Both the position numbers and the translations under genes were made by a program. DNA of 64,000 bases from Candidatus Bathyarchaeota archaeon (GTDB taxonomy: Archaea > Thermoproteota > Bathyarchaeia > TCS64 > PIYN01): NCBI GenBank assembly GCA_003601775.1, contig PIYN01000002.1:203-64202 (forward strand), read 5' to 3'. Each line of letters begins with the position of its first letter. Position 1 is the stretch's first letter. The notes beneath the pieces were generated by a model. That model was not told the origin of the DNA. It worked only from the letters and a program-made list of their open reading frames with translations, and searched no databases. Below are positions 1,162-40,619 of this stretch, piece by piece.

Positions 1162-2052
1162 ATGTCCTCCGTCGACCTCGCCGTCTCCCTCTTCCGCAGA
1201 CTTGAGGGCGGCGACTTCCGTGTGCTCCAGGGCTTGGAGTTGGGCATGACCCAGTATAGGTTCGTCCCTTTGGAGGAGGTCGTGAGGTACTCCTCCCTCC
1301 CCCCCTCCGAGGTCGGGTTCAGGATCTCGAACCTCCACAGGCTGGGCCTCGTCTATCGATGGGTCGGCCCCTATGTGGGGTATGCCCTCAACACCGCGGG
1401 GTACGACTGCCTCGCCCTCAACGCCCTGGTCAAGGGAGGCATCTTGGAGGCCCTTGGGAAGCCCCTGGGGGTGGGGAAGGAGGCCGACGTCTACGACGCC
1501 CTCACCCCGGAGGGCGAACGGGTGGCCGTCAAGTTCCACAGGATCGGGAGGACGAGCTTCAGGGATACGAGGAGGAAGAGGGGGTACGAGGGGGATCGGA
1601 GGCATATCTCTTGGCTCTACCGGTCGAGGCTCGCGGCGGAGAGGGAGTTCGAGGCCCTGAAGCTGGTTCACTCGGTTGGGGTGGCCGTCCCCCGGCCGAT
1701 AAAGCAGAACAGACACGTCATCGTCATGGGCCTCATCGAGGGATGGGAGCTCGCCGAGGTGGGGGAGATCGACGAGGCTGAGGCCGTTCTCAATGAGGTG
1801 CTGGAGAACGTGAGGCTCTCCTACCAGAAGGCGGGGGTCATCCACGCAGACCTCAGCGAATACAACATAATAATCCAGGCCGACGGCCACGTGCTCCTCA
1901 TCGACTGGCCCCAGTACGTCACAAGGGAGCATCCAAACGCAGAGGACCTCCTGAGGAGGGACGTCCGGAACGTCCTCAACTACTTCAGGAGAAAATTCAG
2001 GGTAAGGAGGAGTCTGGAGGAGGAACTGGCGAGGATAAAGGGAGAGGCTTAG
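1162..2052 (+). CDS. rio2: RIO-type serine/threonine protein kinase Rio2
   Basis: N-terminal winged-helix region followed by a RIO kinase core. Motifs: GKEADVY...VAVKFHRIG, catalytic HADLSEYNIII, and metal-binding LIDWPQ. Confidence 0.75.
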   Translation: MSSVDLAVSLFRRLEGGDFRVLQGLELGMTQYRFVPLEEVVRYSSLPPSEVGFRISNLHRLGLVYRWVGPYVGYALNTAGYDCLALNALVKGGILEALGKPLGVGKEADVYDALTPEGERVAVKFHRIGRTSFRDTRRKRGYEGDRRHISWLYRSRLAAEREFEALKLVHSVGVAVPRPIKQNRHVIVMGLIEGWELAEVGEIDEAEAVLNEVLENVRLSYQKAGVIHADLSEYNIIIQADGHVLLIDWPQYVTREHPNAEDLLRRDVRNVLNYFRRKFRVRRSLEEELARIKGEA

Positions 2053-3053
2053 GGCCTCCAGCCCTCGATGAGGAGCAGGTAGAGGGAGGAGGCCGTGAGG
2101 TCCGCGGTTGTCCCGGGGTTGAGGTCCCCCCCGGCTTTATGGAGCTCCTCGTCCATCTCCAGGACCCTCCTCCTCCCCTCCGGGGTGGTGAGCCCCCCCT
2201 CCTCCAACGCCTCGATGGCCATCCTGCTCACCCTCAAGGCGGCCTCCTTTCCAGACTTCCTCTCGATGAGGGAGTCGGGGACCCTCGAGAGGATGTGGAG
2301 GTAGGTATGGACGACCGCGGTGTTGATATCCCCCGTCTCCCCCAGCACTCCTTTCAGGTAGGGGTATCCAAGGGTGAAGGTGATGGAGAAGTCCGTCACC
2401 CACTCCTCGCAGATGGAGTCCCTCCTCCTGCACTCCTCGAAGACCCTCAGGGGCGTCACCCCCTCCTTCTCAACCCTGGTCAACGTCTCATCGTCCAAGA
2501 CGTCGAGGGCCTCAACCCTCCCGAGGACCCTCGGAGAGACAGCGATACGGATGGCCCTGTAGATCCCCAGAGTGTCCCTGGGCGTGGACGCCCGGATGAT
2601 CCTCCCAAGGTCACGCCTCAGCCGGCAGAGGTCGATACGCTCGTTCTCCGAGAGGTGGAGGCCGGAGGCGGCGGCCAGTGGGGAGAGGAGGAGTATGATG
2701 CCGAGGTTCACGTTCCCCCCGCCCTGCCACGCCCCTGCCTCCCTCACAGCCCTGAGGATCTGGTCACCTAGGCCGATCTCTCCGAGACCTAAGTGCCCCC
2801 TCCCGGCGTCGTAACCCCTCTGGGCCAGCTCCTTCATCGCCGGGCCGATGGCGACGGCGCCAGCGAGGAACTGCTCGAACCTCGTCTTTGAGGTGTCCCT
2901 CGTCCTGTGGACGTTCCCTGGCTTGGGGTACCCTGAGACCTCCAGGAGGGAGGCTAGGACGGCACATCTCTCCACGAGGTCCCCCACATCACTCCTCGAT
3001 GGACTTGGAGTCATAGGGTATCTTACCCCGAAATACGTAGTGGTTAAAGGCAT
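2049..3053 (-). CDS. triphosphoribosyl-dephospho-CoA synthase (CitG/MdcB)-family protein associated with H4MPT biosynthesis
   Basis: 334 aa with a CitG-like signature (SGYPKPGNVHRTRD, GGGNVNLGIILL). It lies divergent to a methanopterin gene block. CitG-family genes (orf21-type) are known components of H4MPT biosynthesis clusters. Confidence 0.6.
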   Translation of the reverse strand: MPLTTTYFGVRYPMTPSPSRSDVGDLVERCAVLASLLEVSGYPKPGNVHRTRDTSKTRFEQFLAGAVAIGPAMKELAQRGYDAGRGHLGLGEIGLGDQILRAVREAGAWQGGGNVNLGIILLLSPLAAASGLHLSENERIDLCRLRRDLGRIIRASTPRDTLGIYRAIRIAVSPRVLGRVEALDVLDDETLTRVEKEGVTPLRVFEECRRRDSICEEWVTDFSITFTLGYPYLKGVLGETGDINTAVVHTYLHILSRVPDSLIERKSGKEAALRVSRMAIEALEEGGLTTPEGRRRVLEMDEELHKAGGDLNPGTTADLTASSLYLLLIEGWRP

Positions 3054-3091
3054 AAATAGGCTAAGGGCAGACTTCCTCCTGGTGTTCTGAG

Positions 3092-3667
3092 ATGGTTCGG
3101 GTGTTGGGGATCGTTGGGAGCCCCAGGGTAGGGGGGAATACGGAGCGCCTCGTCGCCGAGGCCTTGAGGGCGGCTGAAGAGGAGGGGGCTGAGACGAAAT
3201 TGTTGAGGCTGGCCGGGAGGGAGATCAGGCCATGTGACGCCTGCTTATCCTGCAGGAGGACCGGGGAGTGTCGGATAGAGGACGACTTCGGCCCCGTCTT
3301 CGATGAGATGCTCAGGTCCGATGGGATCATCCTGGCCACGCCCGTCTACTTCGGCTCCGCGACGCCCCAGATAAAGGCCCTCATCGACAGGGCGGGGTTC
3401 CTCTCCTCCGCGAGAGGCAGGGTCTTCGAGGACAAAGTCGGCGGGGCCCTCGTCGTCGCGAGGAGGGCCGGGCAGAACTTCACCTTCGCCCAGCTCCTCT
3501 TCTTCTTCCTCCACCAAGGTATGATCGTCCCCGGCTCCACCTACTGGAACATAGCCTTCGGGAGGGAGAAGGGGGAGGTGGAGGGGGATGAAGAGGGCCT
3601 GAGGACGGTCAGGAACTTCGGGAGGAAGATGGTCTGGCTCATCAGGAGGATTAAGGGCTCGGATTAA
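3092..3667 (+). CDS. iron-sulfur flavoprotein / NADPH-dependent FMN reductase family (Isf-like)
   Basis: Flavodoxin-like start (VLGIVGSPRVGGNTE) plus a compact cysteine cluster, CDACLSCRRTGEC (CX2CX2CX5C), characteristic of archaeal Isf proteins. Confidence 0.6.
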   Translation: MVRVLGIVGSPRVGGNTERLVAEALRAAEEEGAETKLLRLAGREIRPCDACLSCRRTGECRIEDDFGPVFDEMLRSDGIILATPVYFGSATPQIKALIDRAGFLSSARGRVFEDKVGGALVVARRAGQNFTFAQLLFFFLHQGMIVPGSTYWNIAFGREKGEVEGDEEGLRTVRNFGRKMVWLIRRIKGSD

Positions 3668-3765
3668 TCCGTCTCTTCGCCTTCCTTTTATAGTTCGCAG
3701 TCGAGGGGGATCATAGGAGGAGAACAGCCCTGAAGGGTCTCCGCGAGGGCGACTACATCGAGACT

Positions 3766-4731
3766 GTGGAGCACCTCATCTTCACCGTCAAGGGACTATC
3801 CCACCCGAGGGGGAGGACCATCGCCTACCTCCGCTACATCCCGGACTCCAGAGGAGATAGGAGGAGGGGAGACGGCCTCAGGTTCAGGAGGGTCTACGAC
3901 ACCAGGGAGACCACCGAGTACCTGAGGAGGAACTTCCCCGAGTACCTGCACCCCGACGAGAGGTGGGGGGTACTCCTCCAATCCGTCCCTGATACAGAGG
4001 TCCTGAGGGTCTACCACCCAACGGAGGGACTGGAGGAGATGAGGAGGAGACCTGCTGGGGAGCTTGGGGAATTGGCCGTGAGGTTCGCCGAGGCGATAGC
4101 CAGAGAGGCCGATATTCCACTGGGGGGCATCGGCGTCTCAGGGTCCCTCCTCCTCGGGTTGGCGACCACCTCCTCCGACATCGACCTCGTCATCTACGGT
4201 GAGGAAAACTGCCGGCGGGCCTATGAGGCCCTTAGGAGGCTGAGGGAGAGTGAAACCTGGATCTCTCCCTACGACCGTGAAAGGGTGATGGGGGTCGTGG
4301 AGTCGAGGTGGGGGGAGACCGGGATCGACTTGAACGCTTTCGTCGAGATCGAGAGGGCGAAGGTCCTCCACGGCCTCGTCGAGGGAAGGGACTACTTCAT
4401 CAGGCTCGTGAAGGACTGGGAAGAAGTCGAGGAGGAACCGATCTCTTGTAGCCCCTTGGGCACCGCAAGGGTCCAGGCCAGAATTAAGGACGATAGCGAC
4501 TCCATCTTCACCCCCTGCAGCTACCCCTTAGAGGAATGTAGGTTCCTGGAGGGAGGGGCTGAGGGGTTCGTCAAGGAGCTGGCGAGCTTCAGGGGGAGGT
4601 TCACGGAGCAGGCCCGGGAGGGGGAAGTCGTCGAAGCGAGAGGGAGATTAGAGAAGGTCCTCACCGAGGGGGGGACCCATCTGAGGCTCCTACTGGGAGA
4701 CCCAAGGGATTACCTCATCCCGATAGGGTGA
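3766..4731 (+). CDS. Pol-beta superfamily nucleotidyltransferase with a C-terminal beta-rich domain
   Basis: Minimal NTase motif GVSGSLLLGLATTSSDIDLVIYGE (GS...DxD). About 150 aa of a C-terminal domain I do not recognise. Its stop overlaps the start of the next gene (4728), which suggests an operon. Confidence 0.5.
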   Translation: MEHLIFTVKGLSHPRGRTIAYLRYIPDSRGDRRRGDGLRFRRVYDTRETTEYLRRNFPEYLHPDERWGVLLQSVPDTEVLRVYHPTEGLEEMRRRPAGELGELAVRFAEAIAREADIPLGGIGVSGSLLLGLATTSSDIDLVIYGEENCRRAYEALRRLRESETWISPYDRERVMGVVESRWGETGIDLNAFVEIERAKVLHGLVEGRDYFIRLVKDWEEVEEEPISCSPLGTARVQARIKDDSDSIFTPCSYPLEECRFLEGGAEGFVKELASFRGRFTEQAREGEVVEARGRLEKVLTEGGTHLRLLLGDPRDYLIPIG

Positions 4732-5405
4732 GAGGACGGATGTTCCAAGGAGATGATGTGCAAACGCTCCTTGATAAACTGGGCTTCATACCCGGGGAGA
4801 TCGTGGAGATCATCCTAACGACCCGCGGGGTCGAGGGGGAACTGAATGCGGCCCCCATGGGGGTCATCAGGGTTGGAGCCAGGACCCTCGAGGTCAGACC
4901 CTTCCTCGAGACGAGGACCTACAGGAACCTGAAGGATACGGGCCTGGGGGTGGCAAATATCACATATGATGTGGGCCTCTTCTTGGAGACGGCCTTCAAG
5001 AGGGGTGGCGTGAGACCGGAGTGGTTCGAGGAGGAGCCGGTTGCAGATCCACCAGGCCTCAGGGGGGCGGACGCCCTCCTCTTCCTCTCCGTCCTGGAGG
5101 AGAGCTCCTTCTCGGAGATGAGGGCGAGGTTCCTCTGCCGGGTGGAGTGGGTGAGGGTCCGGACCCCCTTCCCCAGGGCCTTCAGCAGGGGCTTCGCCGC
5201 CGCCATCGAGGCGATCATCCACGCCACGAGGATAGAGGCCTTTATAAGGGAAGGGAGGAGGGAAGAAGTTGATAGGCTACTCCGTCTGTTCAGGGGGTGC
5301 AGGGATGTCATCGAGAGGGTCTCCCCCGAGGACTCGCCGAACAGGAGGGTCGTGGAGACCCTGGAGGACATGATAGCGGAGTGGATGAGTAAGGAATGGA
5401 GGTAG
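4728..5405 (+). CDS. DUF447-family protein (FMN-binding split-barrel-like; methanopterin-associated)
   Basis: 225 aa. The N-terminal PGEIVEIILTT...NAAPMGV resembles the flavin-reductase-like/DUF447 fold that co-occurs with mptG in H4MPT clusters. It overlaps both neighbours by 4 and 10 nt. Confidence 0.45.
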   Translation: MRGRMFQGDDVQTLLDKLGFIPGEIVEIILTTRGVEGELNAAPMGVIRVGARTLEVRPFLETRTYRNLKDTGLGVANITYDVGLFLETAFKRGGVRPEWFEEEPVADPPGLRGADALLFLSVLEESSFSEMRARFLCRVEWVRVRTPFPRAFSRGFAAAIEAIIHATRIEAFIREGRREEVDRLLRLFRGCRDVIERVSPEDSPNRRVVETLEDMIAEWMSKEWR

Positions 5406-6352
5406 TGGTGAAAACCCCCGCCAGGCTCCACTTCGGGATCATCGACATGAGGGGAGACCTCGGGAGGATCTACGGCAGCGTCGGCGTCGCCATAGATCGC
5501 CCCAACATCATCCTAAGGGCGAGGTCCTCCGGGGAGTTAAGGGTCTCCGGCTCGAGGGCTGAGAGGGTCAGGGGGTACGCCGAGGCCCTCCTGAGGGACT
5601 TCAGCCTCGAGGGAGGGGCCGAGATCAAGGTCCTGAGGGATATGCCAGAGCACGTCGGGTTCGGCTCAGGGACACAGCTCGCCCTGGCGACGGGGTCAGC
5701 CCTCTCAAAGCTCTTCGACCTCGGTCTCACGGTCGAGGAGATCTCAGAGAGGCTGGGGAGGGGGAGGAGATCGGGCGTGGGGACCTACGCCTTCAAGGTG
5801 GGGGGGTTCGTAGTAGATGGGGGTCACAGCACCAAGAACCCCCAAGGGGTCCCGCCCCTCATCTTCAGGTCAGAGGTCCCAGAGGACTGGCTCTTCATCG
5901 TCGGCCTCCCAAGACTGGGCCGAGGGGTGAGCGGAGGGAGTGAGAGGGAGGCCTTCAGACGGGTCCCCAAACCATCCCCGGAGCTCGTGGGGGAGGTCTC
6001 GAGGGTCGTCCTCCTCAAGATGATCCCCTCCATCATAGAGGGCGACATAGAAGCCTTCGGAGAGGCCATGACAACCCTGGACTTCAAGTTCGGGGAGTGC
6101 TGGATGACCGTCCAGGGGGGGAGGTTCTCCCACCCCCTCGTGGAGGCGGGCATAAACTTCCTCCTCGAGGAAGGGGTCCACGGTGTCGGGCAGAGCTCCT
6201 GGGGCCCCGTCTTCTACGGCCTCGTCGAGGGAGAGGGACGGGCAAGGAAGATTAGTGGAAGACTCCAGGAGTTCTTGGAGGAGAGGGGTGGGGGGGAGGT
6301 CTTCTACACCAGGGCAAACAATCATGGGGCGGAGATTACCGTAAGACGCTGA
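5396..6352 (+). CDS. mptG: beta-ribofuranosylaminobenzene 5'-phosphate (beta-RFAP) synthase, GHMP-kinase fold
   Basis: Alignable by eye to MJ1427-type RFAP synthase. Matching elements: KTPARLHFGIIDMRGDLGRIYGSVGVAI, the GHMP motif GFGSGTQLALATGSAL, and FVVDGGHS. Confidence 0.75.
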   Translation: MEVVVKTPARLHFGIIDMRGDLGRIYGSVGVAIDRPNIILRARSSGELRVSGSRAERVRGYAEALLRDFSLEGGAEIKVLRDMPEHVGFGSGTQLALATGSALSKLFDLGLTVEEISERLGRGRRSGVGTYAFKVGGFVVDGGHSTKNPQGVPPLIFRSEVPEDWLFIVGLPRLGRGVSGGSEREAFRRVPKPSPELVGEVSRVVLLKMIPSIIEGDIEAFGEAMTTLDFKFGECWMTVQGGRFSHPLVEAGINFLLEEGVHGVGQSSWGPVFYGLVEGEGRARKISGRLQEFLEERGGGEVFYTRANNHGAEITVRR

Positions 6353-6364
6353 GGGTGTGAGGGG

Positions 6365-7102
6365 ATGTTCCTGGCCTGGGGGATCACTGGTGCGGGGCAC
6401 TTCCTCCTCGAGACCTTCACCCTGATGGAGGAGGTGGCGAGACGGGGGGACGTGAAGGTGACGACCTACCTGACGAGGGCGGGGGAGGAGGTCGTGAAGA
6501 TCTACGGGCTCTGGGACCGCCTTAGGGAGATCTCCGACGGCGGCTACTACTCCGAGATCCTCAGGGAGAAGGAGGAGGGTGCGAGCTCACCCTCGGCCGG
6601 GCGCCTGGCGAGGGGCGTCTACAGGGCGCTCATAGTCTCCCCCGCCTCAGCCAACACCGTCGCGAAGATCAGGGTCGGCATCGCCGATACCCTGGTGACG
6701 AACGCCGTCGCCCAGGCCCTGAAGTCTGGGACGCCCGTGCTGATCCTCCCGACGGACCAGGCCCTGGAGGAGTTCGAGACCACGCTGCCGCATAGGGTTG
6801 ATAGGGAGGTCTGTAGGGGGTGTAGGCCCTGCCCAGCGAGGGAGGTATGTCCCACTGATGCCTTAAGGAGGGTGGAGGGTCGGATGAGGATTCACCTCCC
6901 CCTCTGTGTGGGCTGCGGTCTATGCCTGGAGGCCTGCCCCTATGGGGCGATAAGGTTTGGGGAGAGGATAAGGGTGAGGGCGAGGGGGGTGGATGTGGAG
7001 AATGTGGAGTCCCTGAGGAGGATGGAGGGCCTGAAGGTCGCCTCCGACCCCGAGGAGCTCAGAGAGGCCATAGAGGAACTCCTGGGAGGTTCCAGCCCTT
7101 GA
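6365..7102 (+). CDS. dmrX: archaeal dihydromethanopterin reductase-like flavoprotein (AfpA/DmrX family) with two [4Fe-4S] ferredoxin motifs
   Basis: HFCD/AfpA flavoprotein signature (WGITGAGH, SPASANTVAKI) plus two CxxCxxCxxxCP motifs (CRGCRPCPAREVCP; CVGCGLCLEACP), as in M. mazei DmrX. Confidence 0.6.
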   Translation: MFLAWGITGAGHFLLETFTLMEEVARRGDVKVTTYLTRAGEEVVKIYGLWDRLREISDGGYYSEILREKEEGASSPSAGRLARGVYRALIVSPASANTVAKIRVGIADTLVTNAVAQALKSGTPVLILPTDQALEEFETTLPHRVDREVCRGCRPCPAREVCPTDALRRVEGRMRIHLPLCVGCGLCLEACPYGAIRFGERIRVRARGVDVENVESLRRMEGLKVASDPEELREAIEELLGGSSP

Positions 7103-7125
7103 GGGTCCTCCTGGTAACGGGGCTG

Positions 7126-8688
7126 ATGGCCAAGGAGATGGTGGAGCGCTACGCGAGGGTGAACGGCGTCGAGGCCACGGTCCTCGCCCTCCCCGTCTCC
7201 GTAGCCGCCTTCCTCACCCCCGATCTCGTCGCGGAGAGGCTGAGAGGGAGGGACCTGAGCGGATACGACCTCATCCTCCTCCCAGGGGCCATGAAGGGGG
7301 ATGTCTCAGCTGTTGAGGAGGCTACGGGAGTCCCCACCTTCAAGGGGCCCCTCCACGCAGCAGACCTCCCCTTAGTCCTAAGCCTCCTCGGCGAGATCGA
7401 GCTCTCGAAGACCCGTCCAGCCTCGGAGCTGATCAGGGGAAGACTGAGGAAACGCGCCCTCAAGGAAATAGAGTCGGCCGAGAGGGAGTGGAGGAGACTC
7501 CTCGAGGAGGGAGGGGGGTTCACCCTGGGGAAGGGGGCCGGTAGGGTAGCCGTGGGACGGCTGCTCCCGATGCGCGTAGTGGCGGAGATCGTGGACGCCC
7601 CGAGGCTCACGGATAGAGAAATAGAGCGGAGGGCCATCTACTACGCGGAGTCGGGCGCCGATATAATCGACGTGGGGATGATGGCGGGGAGGCCCAGGCC
7701 AGGGGAGGTGCGGAGGATCCTCGAGGCCGTGAGGAGCGCCGTCGAAAAGCCCGTCAGCATAGACACCCTCGACCCCTCGGAGATAAGGGCCGCCGTGAAG
7801 GCGGAGGTGGACCTCGTCCTGAGCTTAGACAGGGGGAATATGGAGGAGGTTGCACCCCTCCTCCAGGACATCCCCGTCGTCGTGATACCGACGGATGTCA
7901 GAAGAGGGGAGCTACCCCGGAGGGCTGAAGAACGCGTGAGGCGGTTGGAGAAGAACATAGAGCAGGCCCGGGAGATGGGGGTCGAGAAGGTCGTCGCGGA
8001 CCCGATATTGGAGCCCGCCCTGACCCCGGGCGTCTTCGAGTCCCTCAGGGCCTACCACCTCTTCGCCGAGAGGAACCCAAGGATCCCCCTCCTCTTCGGC
8101 GTGGGGAACGTGACCGAGCTGATGGACATCGACTCCGTGGGCGTGAACGGACTACTCGCGGCGATGGCCGCGGAGCTCGGCGTGAGCCTCCTCTTCACGC
8201 CCGAGCATAGCGACAAGGCGAGGGGGAGCGTGAGGGAGCTCGCCACGGCGTCAAGGATGATGTTCCTCGCGAAGAGGAGGAGGACAACCCCCAAGGACCT
8301 CGGCATCGACCTCCTCATCCTCAAGGATAAGAGGTTCAGGGAGGAAGGTTATAAGAGGAGCATCGAGGAGGGCGTTGAGGTCCTGGAGCCCGAGGAGGTG
8401 GAGGGCTACCAGGAGGATGAGAGGGGCTGGTTCAGGATACTCCTCGACAGGGAGGAGGGGAAGATCGTCCTCCTCCATTTCCCCAGAGGAGGGAAGAGGC
8501 CGGACCTCATATTGAAGGGCAGGAAGGCAAGGCCCCTATACATCGCAGCCATCAAGAGGGGATTGGTCTCGAGGCTCGACCATGCGGCCTACCTCGGGAG
8601 GGAGCTGGGGAAGGCGGAGGTCGCCCTCTCCACGGGGAAGGCCTATGTGGAGGATGAACCCCTCTTCCTCCGCTTCCACTCGGCGTAG
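7126..8688 (+). CDS. mptH: dihydropteroate synthase-like pterin-binding protein (MptH-type)
   Basis: Pterin-binding barrel motifs ([21 protein letters not shown]) preceded by an N-terminal domain, as in the long archaeal DHPS homologs used for H4MPT. An in-frame TTG at 7099 overlapping the upstream stop is an alternative start. The ORF-track start at 6922 is rejected. Confidence 0.6.
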
Positions 8689-9758
8689 TCCTCCACGATC
8701 CTCCTCCAGTCAACGTACTCCCCGACGATATCCCTCGTCAGCCTTATCTTCTTCAGAGAGGAAGGAGTGGGGGAGATCCTACCGCTGATCTCCTCCAGCC
8801 GTCTCACCGTGGTGTAGGTATCCTGGGGGACGAGGACTATGGGGATCCCCTTCTCCTCAGCCCTCGTCAGGACGCTCAGGGAGGGGTAGAGGTTCCCCGT
8901 GAGGACCAGGACGCTCATATCCGCCTCGAGGGCGGTGAGGATCAGGTCCGTGCGGTCGCCACCGGTGATGAGGGCGCTCCCAGCGCCCCTCCTCAGCCAG
9001 TTCAGGGCCGATTCCGGGGTCATCGCCCCGACGAGGAATCCCTCCACAAGGCGGTCCAGGTGCTCCCGCCCGGCCAGGACCTCGGCGTTCAGCTCCCTCA
9101 CGAGGTCCTCCACACTCGGCAAGCTCAGCTCCTTCTTATCTGGGACCGCCCCCAGAGACTCTATGCCACACCTCTTAAGGGTGGGTAGGAGGACGCCCCT
9201 GACCCTTTCGATGACCTGTCTGGGGACGAAGTTGATGATGACCCCCATGAGCTCCCCCCCACCCCCCTCTATGAACTTTTTATAGAGGACGGCCTCCTCC
9301 ACGATCTCGTCTCCGCTCCCCTTCACGACGAAGAGGACCTTCGCGTCCAGCTCCCTTGAGAGCCGCGGGACATCACACCCCATGCAGGTGAGCGTCTCCG
9401 GCCGGGGAGGGCCCTCCACGATGACGAGGTCCTTCCCCCTGCTCAGCTCCCCATAGGCCTCAACTACTCTCTCAACCAGCCTCTGCCTCTCATCCGAGAG
9501 GAGCTCCAGATACCATCTGCCGAGGACTATGGGGGTTATCACCTCCAGGGACTCCTTGAGGGAGAGGACCTCCTTCATCGTGACGGTATCTGGATCCACA
9601 AGCCTCCCCTCCACGGTCTTGAGGCCGAACCCGATGGGCTTGAAGTATCCGACCCTGAGCCCGATCTCCTGGAACTTCTGGAAGAGCCCCAGGCAGAGGG
9701 CTGTCTTCCCACTCAACTCGGTCCCGCAGACGATTATGGGGTATGCCAACTCTCTCAA
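8643..9758 (-). CDS. standalone homolog of the phosphotransacetylase N-terminal regulatory domain (BioD-like P-loop + DRTGG domain)
   Basis: IIVCGTELSGKTALCLGLFQKFQEIGLRVGYFKPIG aligns with E. coli Pta N-terminus [37 protein letters not shown]. The DRTGG motif (ITGGDRTDLILTAL) is present. It overlaps the ACD gene by 4 nt, indicating an operon. Confidence 0.6.
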   Translation of the reverse strand: MRELAYPIIVCGTELSGKTALCLGLFQKFQEIGLRVGYFKPIGFGLKTVEGRLVDPDTVTMKEVLSLKESLEVITPIVLGRWYLELLSDERQRLVERVVEAYGELSRGKDLVIVEGPPRPETLTCMGCDVPRLSRELDAKVLFVVKGSGDEIVEEAVLYKKFIEGGGGELMGVIINFVPRQVIERVRGVLLPTLKRCGIESLGAVPDKKELSLPSVEDLVRELNAEVLAGREHLDRLVEGFLVGAMTPESALNWLRRGAGSALITGGDRTDLILTALEADMSVLVLTGNLYPSLSVLTRAEEKGIPIVLVPQDTYTTVRRLEEISGRISPTPSSLKKIRLTRDIVGEYVDWRRIVEDYAEWKRRKRGSSST

Positions 9759-11896
9759 CTCCTCGATAAGGTGATCTTCACATCCACCGCTATACAGCCC
9801 CTCCCTTCCTCATAGGCGAACAGGGGATTTATATCCATCTCCAGGATCTCGGGGAAGTCTGTCACCAGCTGGCTCACCCTGAGGATGATATTCAGGAGGG
9901 CGTTGATATCCGAGGGTTTCTCCCCCCGCACACCCTTGAGTAGGGTGTAGGCCTTCGTCTCCTCGACCATACCTCGAGCCTCCTCCAGGGACAACGGGGC
10001 CAGCCTAAAGGAGACGTCCCTCAGGAAGTTGACGTAGATGCCCCCGAGGCCGAACATGATGAGCGGCCCGAACTGGGGGTCCCTGCTGACACCCACGATG
10101 AGCTCCCTCCCCTGGGGGACCATCTTCATCACCAAGACACCGTATATCTGGGCCCTCGGCATGTACCGGGAGACCCGGGTGACGATCGACCTATAGGCCT
10201 CCCTGACCTCCTCCGGCGAACTGATATTGAGGACGATGCCCCCGACATCTGACTTATGGAGGATCTCAGGGGAGACGACCTTCAGGACGACGGGGTAGCC
10301 TATCTCCTCGGCAGCACGCATAGCCTCCTCCATGCTCGCCGCCATCCTCATGAGGGGGACGTGGATCCCATAGGCCCTGGCCACCCCCGCGGCCTCGTGG
10401 GGGAGGAGGACGACCCTCCCCTCCCTCCTCGCGGCCTCGACGATCTCACGGACCGCAGCTTTATCGACGTCGTAGAAGAACTCAGGCCTACTCTCAGGGC
10501 GCTCCAGGAACTCGGCATACTCTATGAGAGCCGCCAGCGCCCTAACGGCCTTCTCCGGGAAGTTGAAGCAGGGGATCCCATGATCTATGAGGTACCTGGA
10601 GGCCTCCTCCACGCTCTCCCCACCCATGAAGACGGCGAGGACGGGCTTATCCCTCCCCCCGCTGAGCTCCACGATGGCCTTAGCGGTCTCCACGCTCTCC
10701 GTCATCGCCTGGGGGGTGAGGATGACGAGGAGGGAGCTCACAGAGGGGTCATCGAGGACCTTCTCTATCGCTGTCCTGTACCTCTCCGCCCTGGCGTCCC
10801 CCAGGATGTCTACGGGGTTGTGGACGCTGGAGGCTGGGGGGAGCCCCTCCCTGAGCCCCTTGAGGGTCTCCGCGGAGAGGCGGGCGAGCTTCACGCCGAG
10901 CGCCTCACACATATCGGTCGCCAAGATCCCGGGTCCACCTGCATTCGTCACAATCGCGACGCTGTTTCCCCTCGGCAGCGGCTGGGTGCTGAAGGCGATG
11001 GCATAGTCGAAGAGCTCCTCCACACTCCGCGCCATGATGACCCCCGACTGCTTGAACGCAGTCTTGTAGGCCGTGAAGCTGCCCACCATCGCCCCCGTGT
11101 GGCTCCCCGCGGCCCTGGCGCCCGCCGTGGAGGTCCCGCCCTTGAGGACGATGAGGGGCTTCTTCCTTACAACTTCCCTCGCAACCCGGACGAAACGCTC
11201 CCCCTCCTCTATGGACTCCACGTAGAGGAGGATGACCCTGACCTCCGGGTCCTCGGCCATCGCCTCTATGAAGTCTATCTCATTCAAGTCCGCCTTATTC
11301 CCCAGGCTCACGAAGCTGGCGAAGCCTATATCCTCCCTCAGGACCCAGTCCAGGACGGCCGTCCCCAGGGCGCCGCTCTGGGAGATGAAGCCGATATTCC
11401 CCTTCCTGGGCATGGAGGCGGCGAAGCTGAGGTTCAGGGGGGTGTGAGTATCGATCACGCCGAGGCAGTTGGGGCCCTGCATCCTCATCCCGTAGCGTCT
11501 GCAGACCTCGAGGAGCTGCCTCTCCAGGGCGGCGCCCTCCACCCCAGTCTCCTTGAAGCCCGCGGAGATCACGATGACGGCCTTCACACCCTTCTCCCCG
11601 CAGGCCTTAACGACGTCAAGGACCAACGGCGCCGGGATCGCTATGACGGCGAGGTCGACCTCGTCGGGGATCTCCCTCACATCGCTGAAGCACCTCAGGC
11701 CCAGGATCTCCTTCGCCTTCGGGTTGACGGGGTAGACCTTCCCCGGGAACCCTGTATCGATCAAGTTCCTGACGAGGATATGCCCCACCTTCCCAGGGTT
11801 CCGGGAGGCCCCGATCACGGCCACGGACCTGGGGCGGAAGATGGCGCTGAGGATGGTCGAGGGGGACCTCGCCTCAAGTCGGGAAGGGGGGACCAT
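9755..11896 (-). CDS. acd: acetyl-CoA synthetase (ADP-forming), fused alpha-beta subunits (NDP-forming acyl-CoA synthetase)
   Basis: CoA-binding start (RSVAVIGASRNPGKVG), succinyl-CoA-synthetase-like central domains, catalytic His region (GSHTGAM) and a C-terminal ATP-grasp. The ATG at 11896 is preferred over the ORF-track start at 12271, whose first 125 aa lack homology. Confidence 0.8.
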   Translation of the reverse strand: MVPPSRLEARSPSTILSAIFRPRSVAVIGASRNPGKVGHILVRNLIDTGFPGKVYPVNPKAKEILGLRCFSDVREIPDEVDLAVIAIPAPLVLDVVKACGEKGVKAVIVISAGFKETGVEGAALERQLLEVCRRYGMRMQGPNCLGVIDTHTPLNLSFAASMPRKGNIGFISQSGALGTAVLDWVLREDIGFASFVSLGNKADLNEIDFIEAMAEDPEVRVILLYVESIEEGERFVRVAREVVRKKPLIVLKGGTSTAGARAAGSHTGAMVGSFTAYKTAFKQSGVIMARSVEELFDYAIAFSTQPLPRGNSVAIVTNAGGPGILATDMCEALGVKLARLSAETLKGLREGLPPASSVHNPVDILGDARAERYRTAIEKVLDDPSVSSLLVILTPQAMTESVETAKAIVELSGGRDKPVLAVFMGGESVEEASRYLIDHGIPCFNFPEKAVRALAALIEYAEFLERPESRPEFFYDVDKAAVREIVEAARREGRVVLLPHEAAGVARAYGIHVPLMRMAASMEEAMRAAEEIGYPVVLKVVSPEILHKSDVGGIVLNISSPEEVREAYRSIVTRVSRYMPRAQIYGVLVMKMVPQGRELIVGVSRDPQFGPLIMFGLGGIYVNFLRDVSFRLAPLSLEEARGMVEETKAYTLLKGVRGEKPSDINALLNIILRVSQLVTDFPEILEMDINPLFAYEEGRGCIAVDVKITLSRS

Positions 11897-12138
11897 AGGG
11901 GCTTCAAGTATCAAGGAACCCTCCAAGATAAAAACCTTAATCCTCCCGGGCCGGAGGGACAGGTTCTCTGTCCAAGGCTTCGAAACTACATTTTCTATAA
12001 GGCGTCGATATTTTGGGAGGTAGGAGACCCTTGAAAAGGGCTCCTTCACCCTGAAATAGACAGGATTAATGACTGAAATTCCCTCCTCATTCATCGGGTG
12101 GAGGAGGGTTGGACGATCTTTATGTCCATGTAACTGGC

Positions 12139-13110
12139 TCAGGGAGTTGGCTCCCTCAACAGGGCCCTTATGGTCTCCCGTATGGCCTCCCGGCTGTTGT
12201 ATCGGGGCCTCCAGCCCAGGTTCCTCAGCCTCCTCGTGTCCAACGCCATGTATTTCACATCCCCCTTCCATCCCCTCCCCCCCTCGACGCCCCCCGTGAA
12301 GCAGAATTGGACGTCCCTGAGGCCCATCTCCTCCACGACCATCTCGGCTATCGTCCTCACGTCCACACGGTCCTCAGAACCTATGTTGAAGATCTCGACC
12401 CTCCCCTCTGACCTCTCAAGGCCGAGGAGCATCCCCTCCACACAGTCCTCCACGTAGAGGTAGGACTTCGACTGGGTGCCGTCCCCGAGGATCTCCAACT
12501 CCCCCGGGTTCCTCCGTAGTTTCTCGATGAAGTCGTGGACCACTCCGTGATGACTCCTGGGACCCACGACGTTCGCCAGCCTATAGATGACGGCCCTGAA
12601 GCCGTAGAGGTGGGCGTAGGCGGATATGAGGGCCTCCGAGGCGAGCTTCGAGGCTCCGTAGATGGAGATGGGCTTCAAGGGGGCATAATCCTCGGGGGTT
12701 GGGAGGGTCTCTGCTTCCCCATAGACCGTGGAGGAGGAGGTGAAGACGAGGGCCTTGACGCCACGGCTCAACCTAACCGCCTCGAGGAGGTTGTAGGTGG
12801 CGACGATGTTCTGCTTGAAGTGGGCCTCTGGCCTCGCGTATGAGATGCGGATCTCCGGGTTCGCGGCGAGGTGGTAGACGACCTCACTCCCCTCCACGAC
12901 CCTCCTCACCTCCTCCGGGTCCAGTAGGTCGCCTTCCACAAACTCGAAGCGGGGGTCGCTCATCCATCCCCTAAGATTCTCCAACCTCCCAGAGGTCAGG
13001 TTATCCAGGACCCTGACCCTCACACCCCGTCTCATCAGGGCATCGACCAGATGGCTGCCTATGAAGCCCGCCCCGCCGGTGACGAGATGAAACCCTTGGA
13101 GATCCCCCAT
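12139..13110 (-). CDS. NAD-dependent nucleotide-sugar epimerase/dehydratase (SDR family, GalE/UXS-like)
   Basis: Rossmann motif VTGGAGFIGSHLV and the extended-SDR catalytic motif YGASKLASE (YxxxK). Confidence 0.7.
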   Translation of the reverse strand: MGDLQGFHLVTGGAGFIGSHLVDALMRRGVRVRVLDNLTSGRLENLRGWMSDPRFEFVEGDLLDPEEVRRVVEGSEVVYHLAANPEIRISYARPEAHFKQNIVATYNLLEAVRLSRGVKALVFTSSSTVYGEAETLPTPEDYAPLKPISIYGASKLASEALISAYAHLYGFRAVIYRLANVVGPRSHHGVVHDFIEKLRRNPGELEILGDGTQSKSYLYVEDCVEGMLLGLERSEGRVEIFNIGSEDRVDVRTIAEMVVEEMGLRDVQFCFTGGVEGGRGWKGDVKYMALDTRRLRNLGWRPRYNSREAIRETIRALLREPTP

Positions 13111-29268: not shown

Positions 29269-30315
29269 TTAGAAGAATAGGAGACGGCGATGCTTCTCCC
29301 TTTTCCCCACGAGGGGTAGGGTTTCGCCGCAGAACTTGCACTTCATGTCTTCGGTGAGGTTCCATCCTGTTATGGTGTAGCCCTCTCTCCCGATGACCCT
29401 CCTGCCACAGGAGGGGCAGAAGGTGCTCTCGTAGTCGGAGCCTGGGACATTCCCGACGTAGACGTAGCGAACTCCCTCTTCCTGGGCGATCTCCCTGTTC
29501 CTGACGAGGGTCTCGTAGGGGGTAATGGGCTTGAACCTGAACTTATAGTGGGGGTAGAACCTGCTGAGATGGAGAGGAACATCCGGCCCTAAGTTATCAA
29601 CAAGGTACCTGGCCATCCTCCTCATCTCCTCCGGTCCATCGTTGAGTTCCGGGATGACGAGGAAGGTCACCTCCACGTGCACCCCCTTCCGCTTCATCTC
29701 CACCGTCGCATCGAGGACGCTCTTCAGATCCCCCCTGATGTACTCCCGGTAGACCCTCTCATCAAAGGACTTCCAGTCCACGTTGGCGGCGTCTATGAGC
29801 CCGACGACCTCGTCCAGGGCCTCGAGGGTGATGTAGCCGTTGGTGACGAGGACGTTCTTCACACCCTCCCTCCGAGCCACCCGCGCCACGTCCTCCACGT
29901 ACTCGAGGTTGATGAGGGGCTCGTTGTAGGTGTAGGCGATGCTCGTACAGTCGCGCCTCTTCGCCAGGGAGACCACCTCCTCGGGCTCCACGTACCTCGT
30001 CGGGATCTCCCCTGGACGTGACTGTGAGAGCTCCCAGTTCTGACACCAGGGACAGGTGAAGGAGCAGCCGAGGCTGCTGATGGAGAAGGCAAGGCTCCCG
30101 GGGTAGAAGTGGAAGAGGGGCTTCTTCTCTATGGGATCGACGGCGAGGGCCGTCAGCTCCCCGTAGGTGAGAGTGTAGAGCCTCCCATCCCGATTCTCCC
30201 TCGTCCCGCAGAACCCCCTCTCCCCGGGCTTGATCACGCAGCGCCTGGGGCAGATGGTGCACCTCACGAGGTTATCCCCGAAGGGCTCGAAGAACCTCGC
30301 CTCTCTCTCCGTCAC
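29269..30315 (-). CDS. radical SAM enzyme, COG1180 family, AmmeMemoRadiSam (AmrS)-like
   Basis: N-terminal CTICPRRCVI...GFCG motif, radical SAM cluster CSFTCPWCQNWELS, and a C-terminal Cys pairs (CPSCG...CKFCG). No ATG is available, so GTG at 30315 is proposed (TTG at 30378 is the alternative). The ORF-track start at 30996 is rejected. Confidence 0.6.
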   Translation of the reverse strand: MTEREARFFEPFGDNLVRCTICPRRCVIKPGERGFCGTRENRDGRLYTLTYGELTALAVDPIEKKPLFHFYPGSLAFSISSLGCSFTCPWCQNWELSQSRPGEIPTRYVEPEEVVSLAKRRDCTSIAYTYNEPLINLEYVEDVARVARREGVKNVLVTNGYITLEALDEVVGLIDAANVDWKSFDERVYREYIRGDLKSVLDATVEMKRKGVHVEVTFLVIPELNDGPEEMRRMARYLVDNLGPDVPLHLSRFYPHYKFRFKPITPYETLVRNREIAQEEGVRYVYVGNVPGSDYESTFCPSCGRRVIGREGYTITGWNLTEDMKCKFCGETLPLVGKREKHRRLLFF

Positions 30316-30420
30316 CCTCCCCTCCTCATCCCATGTGATCCTCCTTCCCGAGGCTAATAACCCTTTCCTCGGGGGCAAAGCTTCTATGTCTCCCCTCAGA
30401 GAATATAGTGGAGCAACATC

Positions 30421-40282: not shown

Positions 40283-40558
40283 ATGACCTCGGAGTCTGTA
40301 AGGGTGTATACTCTCCCTGGGTGTCCCCACTGCCAGGTCTTGAAGGATTGGTTGAATAGGAGGGGGATACCCTTTGAGGAGAGGAGTTTCGACACCGAGG
40401 TTCAGGTGGAGTTCATCATGAGGAATATCTTCTCGGACCCGCCGATCCTGGAGGTGGGGTCGAGGATCCTCACCTCCGATGAGATCTTTCAGGGGGAGGA
40501 GATAGATGAGGATAAATTGAGGGAGGTCTTCCATGAAGAGGGCGAGGAGAAGGGGTAA
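40283..40558 (+). CDS. nrdH: NrdH-like glutaredoxin/thioredoxin-fold redoxin
   Basis: 91 aa with a CPHC active site near the N-terminus (VRVYTLPGCPHCQVLKDWL). It sits between the two nrdD genes. Confidence 0.65.
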   Translation: MTSESVRVYTLPGCPHCQVLKDWLNRRGIPFEERSFDTEVQVEFIMRNIFSDPPILEVGSRILTSDEIFQGEEIDEDKLREVFHEEGEEKG

Positions 40559-40619
40559 GGGAAAGGTCCTGCCACCCCCCTTGGAGCAGTTCTTCAAGGC
40601 GGAGAGGAGATACAGAGGC

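Follow-up and report, generated by a model that had tools for sequence, protein, structure and literature searches.

Gene content and organization of the locus

Five plus-strand genes, in the order NTase-like, DUF447, MptG, DmrX and MptH, together with a divergent CitG-like gene, were read from the open reading frames of the window (the whole 64,000-nucleotide stretch of Candidatus Bathyarchaeota DNA analysed here). In the window sequence the plus-strand genes overlap by 4, 10 and 4 nt with a single 12-nt gap, and they are translationally coupled. The arrangement is found again in independent genomes and is thus not due to chance. Judged from sequence, it is a real Bathyarchaeia-type operon, conserved in archaea, for tetrahydromethanopterin (H4MPT) or a close pterin relative. 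A first-pass annotation had placed seven genes in named families here; Pfam and NCBIfam profiles recovered all seven, with two gene starts corrected.

The CitG-like protein (2049..3014, minus strand; 321 aa; 'orf7' subfamily) matches positions 2–283 of the 284 in the Pfam CitG profile PF01874 with an E value of 4.5e-71, in agreement with the earlier assignment of 2049..3053 to this family. The open frame reaches 3053; the start is probably Met14 at 3014 instead, because close relatives are 321 aa long. At 52 bits against 282, the protein falls far short of the NCBIfam equivalog cut-offs for CitG and MdcB. Comparison with E. coli CitG by hhalign gave a probability of 97.8% (E 9e-13, 255 columns) with the common motifs kept, and this homology along the entire length makes it reasonable to infer ribosyl transfer from ATP, so that the protein is a candidate ATP-dependent triphosphoribosyl transferase. 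Its KPGNV and NPGTTAD motifs are common to the Methanobacterium, Natrinema and Azospirillum orf7 proteins, and the NPGTTAD signature marks it as belonging to a separate CitG subfamily that extends from archaea to Azospirillum orf7. Among the approximately 40 window proteins scanned we found no citrate-lyase or malonate-decarboxylase genes and saw no acyl carrier protein (ACP), CitX or MdcG partner near the CitG-like gene.

Between the CitG-like and Isf-like genes lies a divergent intergenic region (3015..3091, no strand) with an A+T-rich ATAAATA box at 3052-3058, which may be a TATA element for both directions. The Isf-like iron-sulfur flavoprotein (3092..3667, plus strand) matches FMN_red (E 8e-31; FMN reductase fold) and carries a CX2CX2CX5C cluster motif (CDACLSCRRTGEC), read from the translation. 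An Isf-like gene occupies this slot only in the window and in one relative (L094) whose NTase is 96% identical. A locus with a 77% identical CitG (L092) has a glyoxalase gene there instead, and the slot is empty in L001, L003 and most other genomes. In two further loci (L021 and L030) an Isf-like gene lies immediately upstream of AfpA. The earlier inclusion of the flavoprotein in the cluster could therefore not be upheld: on this comparison the gene is a recent, local and lineage-specific insertion and no conserved cluster member.

The first gene of the operon encodes a three-domain NTase-like protein (3730..4731, plus strand). Its first canonical start is GTG at 3766, but CTG at 3730 is the likely start because conserved coding sequence begins upstream of that GTG. 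The second, DUF447 (4728..5405, plus strand), shares its first 4 nt with the end of the NTase gene and encodes a protein of FMN-binding split-barrel type with DUF447_N (E 5.8e-19) and DUF447_C domains in Pfam, as had been claimed for this frame. Profile searches matched 2IML, 2PTF (MTH_863), 3B5M and 2NR4 (E values from 1e-24 to 4e-30) and, more weakly, two FMN-binding proteins, 1EJE (1e-3) and 3IN6 (0.02); the protein is a candidate reductase.

MptG (5396..6352, plus strand), of the beta-ribofuranosylaminobenzene 5'-phosphate (beta-RFAP) synthase family, starts 10 nt inside the DUF447 gene, contains the Pfam GHMP kinase N and C domains and scores 194 bits against TIGR00144 (cut-off 113.5). 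The DmrX-type dihydromethanopterin reductase (6365..7102, plus strand) reaches 287.5 bits against TIGR02700 flavo_MJ0208 (cut-off 251) and combines Flavoprotein and ferredoxin-like 4Fe-4S (Fer4) domains. The last gene (7099..8688, plus strand) encodes MptH, a DHPS-like pterin-condensing enzyme with DUF6513, Pterin_bind and DUF4346 domains that scores 424 bits against TIGR00284 (cut-off 257). By our reading its start is the TTG at 7099, overlapping the DmrX stop codon; relatives in L001, L003 and L092 are 522-527 aa long. An ATG at 6922 was rejected as the start, the TIGR00284 match beginning at residue 60 of that longer frame.

Conservation of the cluster across genomes

A scan of a genome collection confirmed 587 relatives among the 600 pattern matches listed, and thus at least 587, of which the best 80 loci were kept. 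The Bathyarchaeia set (n=42) was drawn from these best 80 of at least 587 relatives plus L001 and L003. An NTase-family gene lies within 10 kb of the CitG-like gene in at least 33 of the 42 loci and directly adjacent to it in at least 31, DUF447 and MptG are present in at least 19 and MptH in at least 17, all of these being lower bounds because many contigs are short. The block of NTase-like, DUF447, MptG, (DmrX) and MptH, divergent from the CitG-like gene, is found in many Bathyarchaeia genomes, and the cluster is present in L001, L003 and L092.

Partial versions of the cluster occur well beyond this class. Hydrothermarchaeota show CitG-DUF447-DmrX and CitG-DUF447 arrangements, so that CitG-like and DUF447 genes co-occur there with dmrX; one Thermoproteota genome has MptG-DUF447 beside CitG, and another locus (L035) reads DmrX-MptH-CitG. 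An Azospirillum plasmid carries both mptG-mtdB-ATPgrasp-mch-RimK-CitG-fae, a block also present on a Rhizobium plasmid, and DHNA-hyp-MptH-DUF447-MfnB, in which the DUF447 and MptH genes overlap and DUF447 adjoins MfnB. The haloarchaeon Natrinema has CitG and DUF447 as a pair of overlapping genes, and haloarchaea retain this pair plus an MptG-like gene. The gene beside DUF447 is thus MptG in Bathyarchaeia and Thermoproteota, CitG in Hydrothermarchaeota and Natrinema, and MptH in Azospirillum.

These loci agree with the first-pass annotation, which expected the CitG-like and DUF447 genes to accompany mptG elsewhere: both products fall in the families named for them, and the genes occur with mptG and mptH in Bathyarchaeia, in another Thermoproteota genome and in bacterial H4MPT islands. 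Its proposal that the cluster is a candidate set for side-chain assembly holds for family assignments and co-occurrence, and fails for the Isf-like gene and for orf21. The suggested mapping to orf19/orf21-type genes is right for orf19, the genes being orf7 and orf19/20, with the CitG-like gene at the orf7 position of mch-orf5-orf7-fae; Orf21 is instead a homologue of MfnE (PMC8141765). That CitG-like and DUF447 genes are linked to H4MPT genes has long been known in methylotrophs, and the super-cluster itself is no discovery.

A nucleotidyltransferase accompanies the CitG-like gene in Bathyarchaeia

What is new here is that in Bathyarchaeia no gene accompanies the CitG-like one as constantly as that of a pol-beta nucleotidyltransferase with an OB fold, a constancy that suggests a two-step logic like that of CitG and CitX. 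The only Pfam match of the protein is NTP_transf_2 (24.9 bits, cut-off 21). It comprises an N-terminal domain, a pol-beta NTase core and a C-terminal OB fold (AF2 model, pLDDT 92.3), and its GS...DxD motif is invariant across 26 homologues, as are many further residues. Structural matches are at domain level only, with SSB/RPA OB folds on the one hand and pol-beta/X, cGAS-like and poly(A) polymerases on the other; no sequence homologue was found in the PDB, and hhalign detected no homology to CitX (probability 0.2%). With regard to the mechanism proposed below, this lack of homology to CitX, the existence of several paralogues, one of them at the end of a fwd/ftr block, and an OB fold most like nucleic-acid-binding ones are observations on the other side.

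The best-scoring 120 NTase homologues among the matches listed are all apparently from Bathyarchaeia, and tblastn found none in a plasmid collection that included replicons with whole bacterial H4MPT/dephospho-H4MPT-linked islands. Among the loci kept, only those of Bathyarchaeia and of two Asgard genomes (Frey/Jord) have an NTase-family gene no more than 10 kb from the CitG-like one, and the family may thus fall short of being the universal enzyme for the hydroxyglutarate step.

Proposed side-chain steps and alternatives

Methanopterin has an alpha-linked ribosyl 5-phosphate in its side chain, as does the compound made by CitG, and inversion takes a beta-nucleotide donor to an alpha product, with PRPP leading to beta. 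A ribosyl-transfer mechanism on these lines would be chemically attractive. The steps of MptG, MptH and DmrX are assigned by family membership, and we infer those of DUF447, CitG-like and NTase-like proteins. By that assignment MptG makes beta-RFAP, which MptH condenses with the pterin pyrophosphate. DUF447, as an FMN-dependent reductase, would open and reduce the C-ribofuranosyl ring to 1-deoxyribitol. The CitG-like enzyme would then use ATP, releasing adenine, to place a 5-triphospho-alpha-D-ribosyl group on the ribitol 5-OH, with inversion as in the action of CitG on dephospho-CoA. On the NTase-like protein, the 2-OH of hydroxyglutarate (or another lineage-specific terminal group) would attack the alpha-phosphate, expelling pyrophosphate and forming the phosphodiester, in analogy to the CitX/MdcG reaction with an acyl carrier protein serine; in bacteria with dephospho-H4MPT, phosphatases would remove the triphosphate instead. 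DmrX, again by family, reduces H2MPT to H4MPT, and the Isf-like protein would be at most an optional electron donor or accessory redox partner. The CitG-like, DUF447 and new NTase-family proteins are good but unproven candidates for side-chain steps, and we give the whole reading, an H4MPT-type operon with these three acting as proposed, a probability of about 50%.

Observations that run against the proposed mechanism are the RuBisCO-III context in Asgard genomes, the haloarchaeal CitG-DUF447 pair, the methylofuran reassignment of neighbouring genes and the PRPP scheme. It is conceivable, if unlikely, that the operon serves H4MPT while the CitG-like, DUF447 and/or NTase proteins serve methanofuran/methylofuran or another cofactor, C1-cofactor genes merely clustering together. 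The same bacterial islands contain the 'archaeal-like' genes orf5, orfY, orf17, orf9, orf21 and orf22, once assigned to H4MPT, which proved to be methylofuran genes; CitG lies beside a RimK/MyfB-like ligase and mch-fwd-ftr genes in many archaeal loci and bacteria, and a haloarchaeon keeps the CitG-DUF447 pair, methanopterin being reportedly absent from haloarchaea; the reassignments and this pair make assignment by neighbourhood alone risky. The MfnB gene beside DUF447 in Azospirillum and the NTase paralogue closing a fwd/ftr block point the same way. To our knowledge, however, methanofuran has no ribosyl unit and no phosphodiester for CitG-type chemistry, and the gene that DUF447 overlaps is mptG in Bathyarchaeia and that for MptH in Azospirillum; the CitG-DUF447-DmrX unit of Hydrothermarchaeota and the DmrX-MptH-CitG order in L035 likewise tell against this explanation.

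We find it rather improbable that PRPP and an unidentified transferase carry out the ribosyl step, with the CitG-like enzyme using ATP-derived triphosphoribose to make a prosthetic group for an unknown carrier or acting in nucleotide/pentose-bisphosphate metabolism. In approximately 22 Asgard genomes RuBisCO-III is transcribed divergently from the CitG-like gene, an IF-2B-family member (ribose-1,5-bisphosphate isomerase-like) is close by and mpt genes are absent within 10 kb, and the homologue in the methanogen Methanobacterium sits between hemB and pheS; White's extract experiments reportedly favoured a PRPP donor, and in the classical cell-extract scheme of 1996 the ribosyl step takes PRPP and the hydroxyglutarate step ATP. 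Those Asgard loci, however, come mostly from closely related Promethearchaeota lineages, whose synteny may just be inherited, and the absence of an ACP, CitX or MdcG partner, the stereochemical preference for a nucleotide donor and the repeated linkage to H4MPT genes in four archaeal lineages and bacteria all weigh against a PRPP-based route. Equally doubtful is a reading of the NTase-like protein as an RNA or DNA nucleotidyltransferase outside cofactor synthesis, its gene and the CitG-like one having no more in common in Bathyarchaeia than a bidirectional promoter region. Nucleic-acid binding is suggested by the OB fold, whose best matches are SSB, RPA and tRNA-synthetase anticodon-binding folds, and the match of the core to poly(A) polymerases and pol X, the narrow distribution of the family and its absence near CitG in most other lineages would all fit. 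Yet adjacency to CitG persists in Bathyarchaeia loci where CitG identity to the window protein drops to approximately 40%, and in L039, L042 and L060 the slot is filled by a 28-31% identical paralogue. The overlap of the NTase stop with the DUF447 start, the widely kept NTase-DUF447-MptG-MptH order and the tandem NTase copies near MptH in the Frey/Jord genomes also weigh against a role outside cofactor synthesis.

Comparison with known systems

CitG/CitX (E. coli citCDEFXG) and MdcB/MdcG synthesize and attach the 2'-(5''-phosphoribosyl)-3'-dephospho-CoA prosthetic group. Like CitG, the window protein is a true CitG homologue (full length in Pfam and by hhalign), and as in CitG/CitX the proposed chemistry would move a triphosphoribosyl group from ATP to a hydroxyl, a second hydroxyl then displacing pyrophosphate to give a phosphodiester. 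Unlike CitG and MdcB, it scores far under the equivalog cut-offs, has NPGTTAD and KPGNV in place of SPGGSAD and KPGLVD, lacks citrate-lyase or malonate-decarboxylase genes nearby and is paired with an NTase not homologous to CitX; its acceptor would be a small molecule rather than dephospho-CoA or an ACP serine. With regard to TIGR00144, TIGR00284 and TIGR02700, the products in the window score above the cut-offs of the characterised archaeal enzymes MptG (MJ1427/AF2089), MptH, whose reference we take to be the MJ0301-type DHPS-like enzyme, and DmrX (MJ0208), with MptG falling under the stricter NF040726 equivalog cut-off (238.7 vs 328 bits). The structural-genomics entries 2IML, 2PTF, 2NR4 and 3B5M (DUF447) and 3H9P (CitG-like) are sequence homologues that give the fold, not the reaction.

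A close parallel in gene linkage is with the 'archaeal-like' H4MPT-linked islands of methylotrophic bacteria (mch-orf5-orf7-fae-orf17; orf19-orf20-afpA-orf21-orf22), which make dephospho-H4MPT. The same families and linkages recur there, with the CitG-like gene as orf7 beside a RimK-type ligase and mch, DUF447 by the DHPS-like MptH, and mptG close. Unlike these islands, the archaeal cluster has DUF447-MptG-DmrX-MptH as a single operon, with the NTase-OB gene as an addition.

A translationally coupled gene cluster

Profile searches recovered all seven ORFs that the first-pass annotation had joined into a tetrahydromethanopterin (H4MPT) super-cluster, each in the family named for it. The CitG-like gene lies on the minus strand (2049–3053), and its product matches PF01874 over profile positions 2–283 of 284 (E = 4.5e-71, 240 bits against a cut-off of 27). 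On the plus strand follow an Isf-like gene (3092–3667; FMN_red, E = 8e-31), a pol-beta nucleotidyltransferase (NTase) gene (3766–4731; NTP_transf_2, 24.9 bits against 21), a DUF447 gene (4728–5405; PF04289, 68.6 bits against 24, and PF20766, 25.6 bits against 24.8), a gene of the MptG family (5396–6352; TIGR00144, 194 bits against 113.5), a DmrX gene (6365–7102; TIGR02700, 287.5 bits against 251, with flavoprotein and 4Fe–4S ferredoxin domains) and the gene for DHPS-like MptH (TIGR00284, 424 bits against 257, with DUF6513, Pterin_bind and DUF4346 domains). With both of its domains over the gathering score, the DUF447 protein belongs to the family as proposed. The MptG protein exceeds the cut-off of its family model and scores 238.7 bits on the equivalog NF040726, below the cut-off of 328; the DmrX protein reaches 144 bits on the AfpA model, under the cut-off and lower than its TIGR02700 score.

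All seven ORFs stand where they were first placed, with two starts to be shifted. For the CitG-like protein Met14 (position 3014) is the most likely first residue, because close relatives are all at most 321 residues long and an ATAAATA box lies at 3052–3058. MptH begins not at 6922 but at a TTG at 7099 that overlaps the DmrX stop codon. Five plus-strand genes overlap by 4, 10 and 4 nt and are separated by a single gap of 12 nt, the signature of a translationally coupled operon. The G+C content around the cluster is about 60%, and the best protein matches of the window are to Bathyarchaeia. We consider it very probable that the operon makes an H4MPT-type cofactor.

A scan of the rest of the window found no further C1-cofactor genes (mch, fwd, ftr, RimK or radical-SAM methylase). 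The radical SAM gene at 29269–30996 (minus strand), considered as a methylase of the C1-cofactor type, encodes an AmmeMemoRadiSam-type enzyme instead: the C-terminal 330 residues of the 575-residue protein match that family with 368 bits, and the additional N-terminal ~230 residues have no reported family match, so that the protein may be a fusion. The window also carries tandem genes for the anaerobic ribonucleotide reductase NrdD (37998–40241 and 40533–42797), with an ATP-cone in the first only.

A distinct subfamily of CitG homologues

Alignment with E. coli CitG by hhalign gave a probability of 97.8% (E = 9e-13, 255 aligned columns), with the motifs K-P-G, N-T-x-x-G, D-T and P-G-x-x-A-D in register. 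Together with the full-length PF01874 match, this alignment identifies the window protein as a real homologue of the characterised E. coli enzyme and bears out its earlier assignment to the CitG family. Orthology to CitG or MdcB is ruled out by the equivalog models (TIGR03125, TIGR03132, NF002315 and NF007503), on which it scores at best 52 bits against 282, cut-offs being about 280, in an alignment that covers only the C-terminal third. Among the roughly 40 window proteins scanned there are no citX/citDEF, citrate-lyase or malonate-decarboxylase (mdc) genes, and in related loci the neighbours of the CitG-like gene are mpt, mch, fwd, RimK or RuBisCO genes. A Rhizobium plasmid hit considered as an mdc operon, and so a source of MdcG, proved to be another H4MPT island.

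The window protein carries the signature of the H4MPT-linked ‘orf7’ CitG-like proteins (KPGNV, PD[ST]L[IV]xRK and NPGTTAD), named after a gene in islands of methylotrophic bacteria; in E. coli CitG, KPGLVD and SPGGSAD stand in place of KPGNV and NPGTTAD. The signature is common to the proteins of Methanobacterium and the haloarchaeon Natrinema and to Azospirillum orf7, and linkage of the subfamily to mch, RimK-type ligase or mpt genes is present in related loci. In a five-way alignment the homologue from the methanogen Methanobacterium is 38% identical, and a solved, unannotated structure of a CitG-like relative exists (3H9P). The CitG-like protein probably acts on the cofactor side chain; that it does so by transferring a 5-triphospho-alpha-D-ribosyl group from ATP to the ribitol 5-OH falls a little short of an even chance.

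Gene neighbourhoods across archaea and bacteria

We searched for the subfamily motif LNPGTTADL in one genome per species, using as seed 15 sequences that share it. Among the first 600 pattern matches at least 587 proved to be relatives, of which the 80 best loci were retained; this sample holds the closest loci, and methanogens and bacteria are missing from it. Neighbours were called with iterated HMMs, built from the window proteins, on six-frame ORFs and tallied by lineage, the counts of partner genes near CitG being lower bounds because many contigs are short.

In Bathyarchaeia (42 loci) the NTase family lies within 10 kb of the CitG-like gene in 33 cases, 31 of them directly adjacent, with DUF447 and MptG in 19 each and MptH in 17. 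The corresponding counts in Asgard archaea (33 loci) are 2 for the NTase, 1 for MptH and 0 for both DUF447 and MptG. The CitG-like gene adjoins MptG–DUF447 in one genome among the four loci of other Thermoproteota, and the two Hydrothermarchaeota loci show CitG–DUF447–DmrX and CitG–DUF447. The products of 2049–3053 and 4728–5405 belong to the expected families and their genes co-occur with mptG in other genomes, the two points on which the initial proposal had staked its refutation. On two long Bathyarchaeia contigs (L001 and L003), as in the window, the CitG-like gene points away from a block of NTase-like, DUF447, MptG, (DmrX) and MptH genes; beyond MptH come a DRTGG/AAA_26 gene and a gene resembling those of ADP-forming acyl-CoA synthetases, and Rio2 lies on the opposite side. 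The synthetase-like ORF of the window (9755–12271, minus strand) has 838 residues against 701–723 in relatives, and its listed start is probably too far upstream. One related locus (L035) has DmrX–MptH–CitG in the same direction, and a RimK-type ATP-grasp ligase, Mch, Fwd subunits and Ftr lie downstream of CitG in many Bathyarchaeia, Baldr-, Odin- and Brockarchaeota and Thermofilaceae loci, an order repeated on bacterial replicons.

In 16 loci, 15 from Bathyarchaeia and one from Brockarchaeota (L077), a CofE-like gene (F420-0:gamma-glutamyl ligase family; for example 3770–4624 in L037 and 1456–2310 in L020) adjoins MptH and a RimK-type ligase adjoins CitG, which hints at glutamyl tails on the pterin of these archaea. 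A typical Bathyarchaeia MptG–DUF447–NTase/CitG block also occurs on a contig of 3.5 kb (L023; DATKWN010000029.1) assigned to a Krumholzibacteriaceae bacterium MAG; this contig is probably a binning contaminant.

A nucleotidyltransferase family beside the CitG-like gene in Bathyarchaeia

The nucleotidyltransferase, the least known protein of the cluster, belongs to the pol-beta superfamily by its catalytic motif, hG[GS]...DxD, and by its NTase core fold. For its family, Pfam gives a generic NTase domain only, NCBIfam has no model and the PDB no sequence relative. Homologues number 507 to 880 sequence clusters, those listed all seemingly from Bathyarchaeia. A confident AlphaFold model (pLDDT 92.3, pTM 0.88) divides the protein into an alpha/beta domain at the N-terminus, a pol-beta core and an OB fold at the C-terminus (NTase-OB); structural matches were found for single domains and none for the whole chain. 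Across homologues the catalytic GS…DxD motif is invariant, as are many polar residues spread over the three domains. Homology to CitX was rejected, with an hhalign probability of 0.2% against the E. coli protein.

When the NTase copies of the fetched loci were clustered, one orthologous group emerged that is always divergent-adjacent to CitG; at three loci (L039, L042 and L060) that place is taken by a paralogue with 28–31% identity. That the CitG-like gene of Bathyarchaeia has the NTase-OB family as its constant partner is new here.

Several NTase-OB paralogues exist, with 26–31% identity. In five genomes (L021, L025, L026, L030 and L037) one stands at the end of a RimK–mch–fwd–ftr block, roughly 8.4 kb downstream from CitG. 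Frey- and Jordarchaeia have tandem copies close to MptH, some Bathyarchaeia have up to three or four copies together, and further sites lie in L015 (7508–9632), L017 (17704–19821), L057, L076 and L079. In L021 (8620–9966) an ORF that looks like an NTase–DUF447 fusion is an assembly artefact, caused by a stretch of N.

The NTase gene of the window likely starts upstream of the first canonical start, GTG 3766. The in-frame sequence ahead of it encodes (L)REGDYIET, a motif conserved at the N-terminus of the family, and between the stop codon at 3691–3693 and GTG 3766 there is no ATG, GTG or TTG. A TTTTATA box lies at 3686–3692 and a Shine–Dalgarno-like GGAGGAG at 3716–3722, 7 nt ahead of CTG 3730. 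In one relative (L092, NTase 69% identical) an ATG lies two codons upstream of the position equivalent to this CTG, and a closer one (L094, 96% identical) shares the loss of a canonical start. From these sequence features, CTG 3730 is the likely start codon.

DUF447 and Isf-like proteins

A DUF447 profile built from eight proteins of archaea and Azospirillum matched the unannotated structures 2IML, 2PTF (MTH_863, from a methanogen), 3B5M and 2NR4 with E-values of 1e-24 to 4e-30. Matches to the FMN-binding structures 1EJE (E = 1e-3) and 3IN6 (E = 0.02) are distant and span only about 50 residues. The 2IML crystal is reported to contain bound FMN. The DUF447 gene overlaps mptG in the window, the MptH gene in Azospirillum and the CitG-like gene in Natrinema (L088, 6986–8430; N. 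thermotolerans replicon CP031304.1). A gene for CofD (2-phospho-L-lactate transferase) lies 3 kb upstream of the Natrinema pair.

The Isf-like protein has an FMN_red fold and, read from the translation, the compact N-terminal four-cysteine motif CDACLSCRRTGEC. Its gene had been counted as a member of the cluster and is not conserved there: in most genomes nothing lies between CitG and the NTase gene, L092 (CitG 77% identical) has a glyoxalase-family gene at this place, and an Isf gene occurs there only in the window and L094. Elsewhere (L021, 663–1846; L030, 275–1413) an Isf-like gene immediately precedes an AfpA archaeoflavoprotein gene (TIGR02699 above cut-off) and overlaps it, an arrangement that suggests an Isf–AfpA redox pair. 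Because AfpA is a relative of DmrX, the Isf-like protein could conceivably be a redox partner for this flavoprotein class, for which support is weak. The L094 contig begins (1–20) with AGATGTGTATAAGAGACAG, which we take to be the Nextera transposase adapter, left untrimmed in the public assembly.

A proposed route to the methanopterin side chain

Methanogenesis, anaerobic methane oxidation, the archaeal Wood–Ljungdahl pathway and bacterial formaldehyde oxidation all have H4MPT as their central one-carbon carrier. Family membership assigns beta-RFAP synthesis to MptG, its coupling to the pterin to MptH and the final reduction to DmrX. In the proposed further steps, the DUF447 protein would use flavin to reduce the C-ribofuranosyl ring to 1-deoxyribitol, the CitG-like protein would move a 5-triphospho-alpha-D-ribosyl group from ATP onto the ribitol 5-OH, and the NTase would let the hydroxyl of hydroxyglutarate attack the alpha-phosphate with release of pyrophosphate. 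Bacteria use dephospho-H4MPT; there the triphosphate would be removed instead, fitting the apparent absence of the NTase. In a plasmid collection that includes complete bacterial H4MPT islands, tblastn gave no NTase match, which is weak evidence because it likewise gave no DUF447 match though annotated DUF447 genes exist there.

An alpha-ribosyl 5-phosphate is present in both methanopterin and the CitG product. Inversion at a beta-nucleotide gives the alpha product and inversion at PRPP the beta, and this stereochemistry is an added reason for preferring ATP over PRPP as ribosyl donor. The two-step proposal follows from NTase-OB being the constant partner of CitG: by analogy, the two may form a small-molecule version of the CitG/CitX machinery that builds the alpha-ribosyl-5-phospho-hydroxyglutarate end of methanopterin from ATP, with DUF447 as the third missing enzyme. 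We give this whole reading a probability of roughly 0.2. Taken singly, the reactions assigned to the NTase and to DUF447 as ribofuranosyl-to-ribitol reductase are each somewhat less doubtful, while still unlikely.

Against an ATP donor counts the classical scheme, in which PRPP is reportedly the donor. Guilt by association has itself already failed in the bacterial islands, six of whose ‘archaeal-like’ genes, neighbours of those discussed here, were once ascribed to H4MPT synthesis and have since been moved to that of methylofuran. Also counted against the two-step reading is a CitG-like gene in a RuBisCO-III context: in about 22 Asgard loci (L045–L075 and L082; Promethearchaeota, Hod-, Hermod- and Thorarchaeota) it is divergent from a form III RuBisCO gene less than 2 kb upstream, with an IF-2B-family (ribose-1,5-bisphosphate isomerase-like) gene close by, a DHH-family gene downstream and no mpt genes within 10 kb.

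Haloarchaea raise a related issue. They are reported to be folate users without methanopterin, yet have an MptG-like gene (PMC8305020). With the overlapping CitG–DUF447 pair kept in Natrinema, this leaves two readings: a related compound that has gone unrecognised in haloarchaea, or a wider role for the MptG/DUF447/CitG module. The narrow distribution of the NTase and its nucleic-acid-like OB fold leave room for a function unrelated to the cofactor.

Significance and comparison with methylotroph islands

In the open-access literature we found nothing tying CitG, triphosphoribosyl or DUF447 to methanopterin biosynthesis and no reaction assigned to orf7/CitG-like or DUF447 genes; the searchable literature likewise assigns no enzyme to the late side-chain steps (ring reduction, dephosphorylation, ribosylation and hydroxyglutarate addition). 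The CitG/CitX-like two-step proposal is offered here as new. The cluster leaves three small soluble proteins as candidates, every one with a concrete reaction that can be tested, and makes a pathway gap of about 30 years directly testable. If true, the proposal would replace the PRPP-plus-ATP scheme held since 1996 and assign two missing enzymes, with DUF447 a third, and the NTase-OB paralogues beside fwd/ftr genes would mark further tailoring of C1 cofactors in Bathyarchaeia. Confirmation would complete a textbook cofactor pathway and provide new targets for methanogen inhibition and markers for H4MPT-type metabolism in uncultured archaea; if the proposal is wrong, the cluster remains a well-documented, ordinary cofactor operon.

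The cluster itself would not surprise a specialist: methylotroph genetics had already revealed both this type of cluster and a connection between H4MPT metabolism and the orf7/CitG-like and DUF447 genes. The Azospirillum p2 plasmid carries fhcD–fhcA–…–mptG–mtdB–ATPgrasp–mch–RimK–CitG–fae–orf17 and, 10 kb from this block, DHNA–hyp–MptH–DUF447–MfnB; a Rhizobium megaplasmid repeats the first block (mptG…RimK–CitG–fae type). The earlier link to orf21-type genes does not hold, as orf21 is a homologue of MfnE (PMC8141765). The Azospirillum and Rhizobium blocks match the published islands mch–orf5–orf7–fae–orf17 and orf19–orf20–afpA–orf21–orf22 (PMC3615186), and the CitG-like gene therefore corresponds to orf7 and the DUF447 gene to orf19 or orf20.
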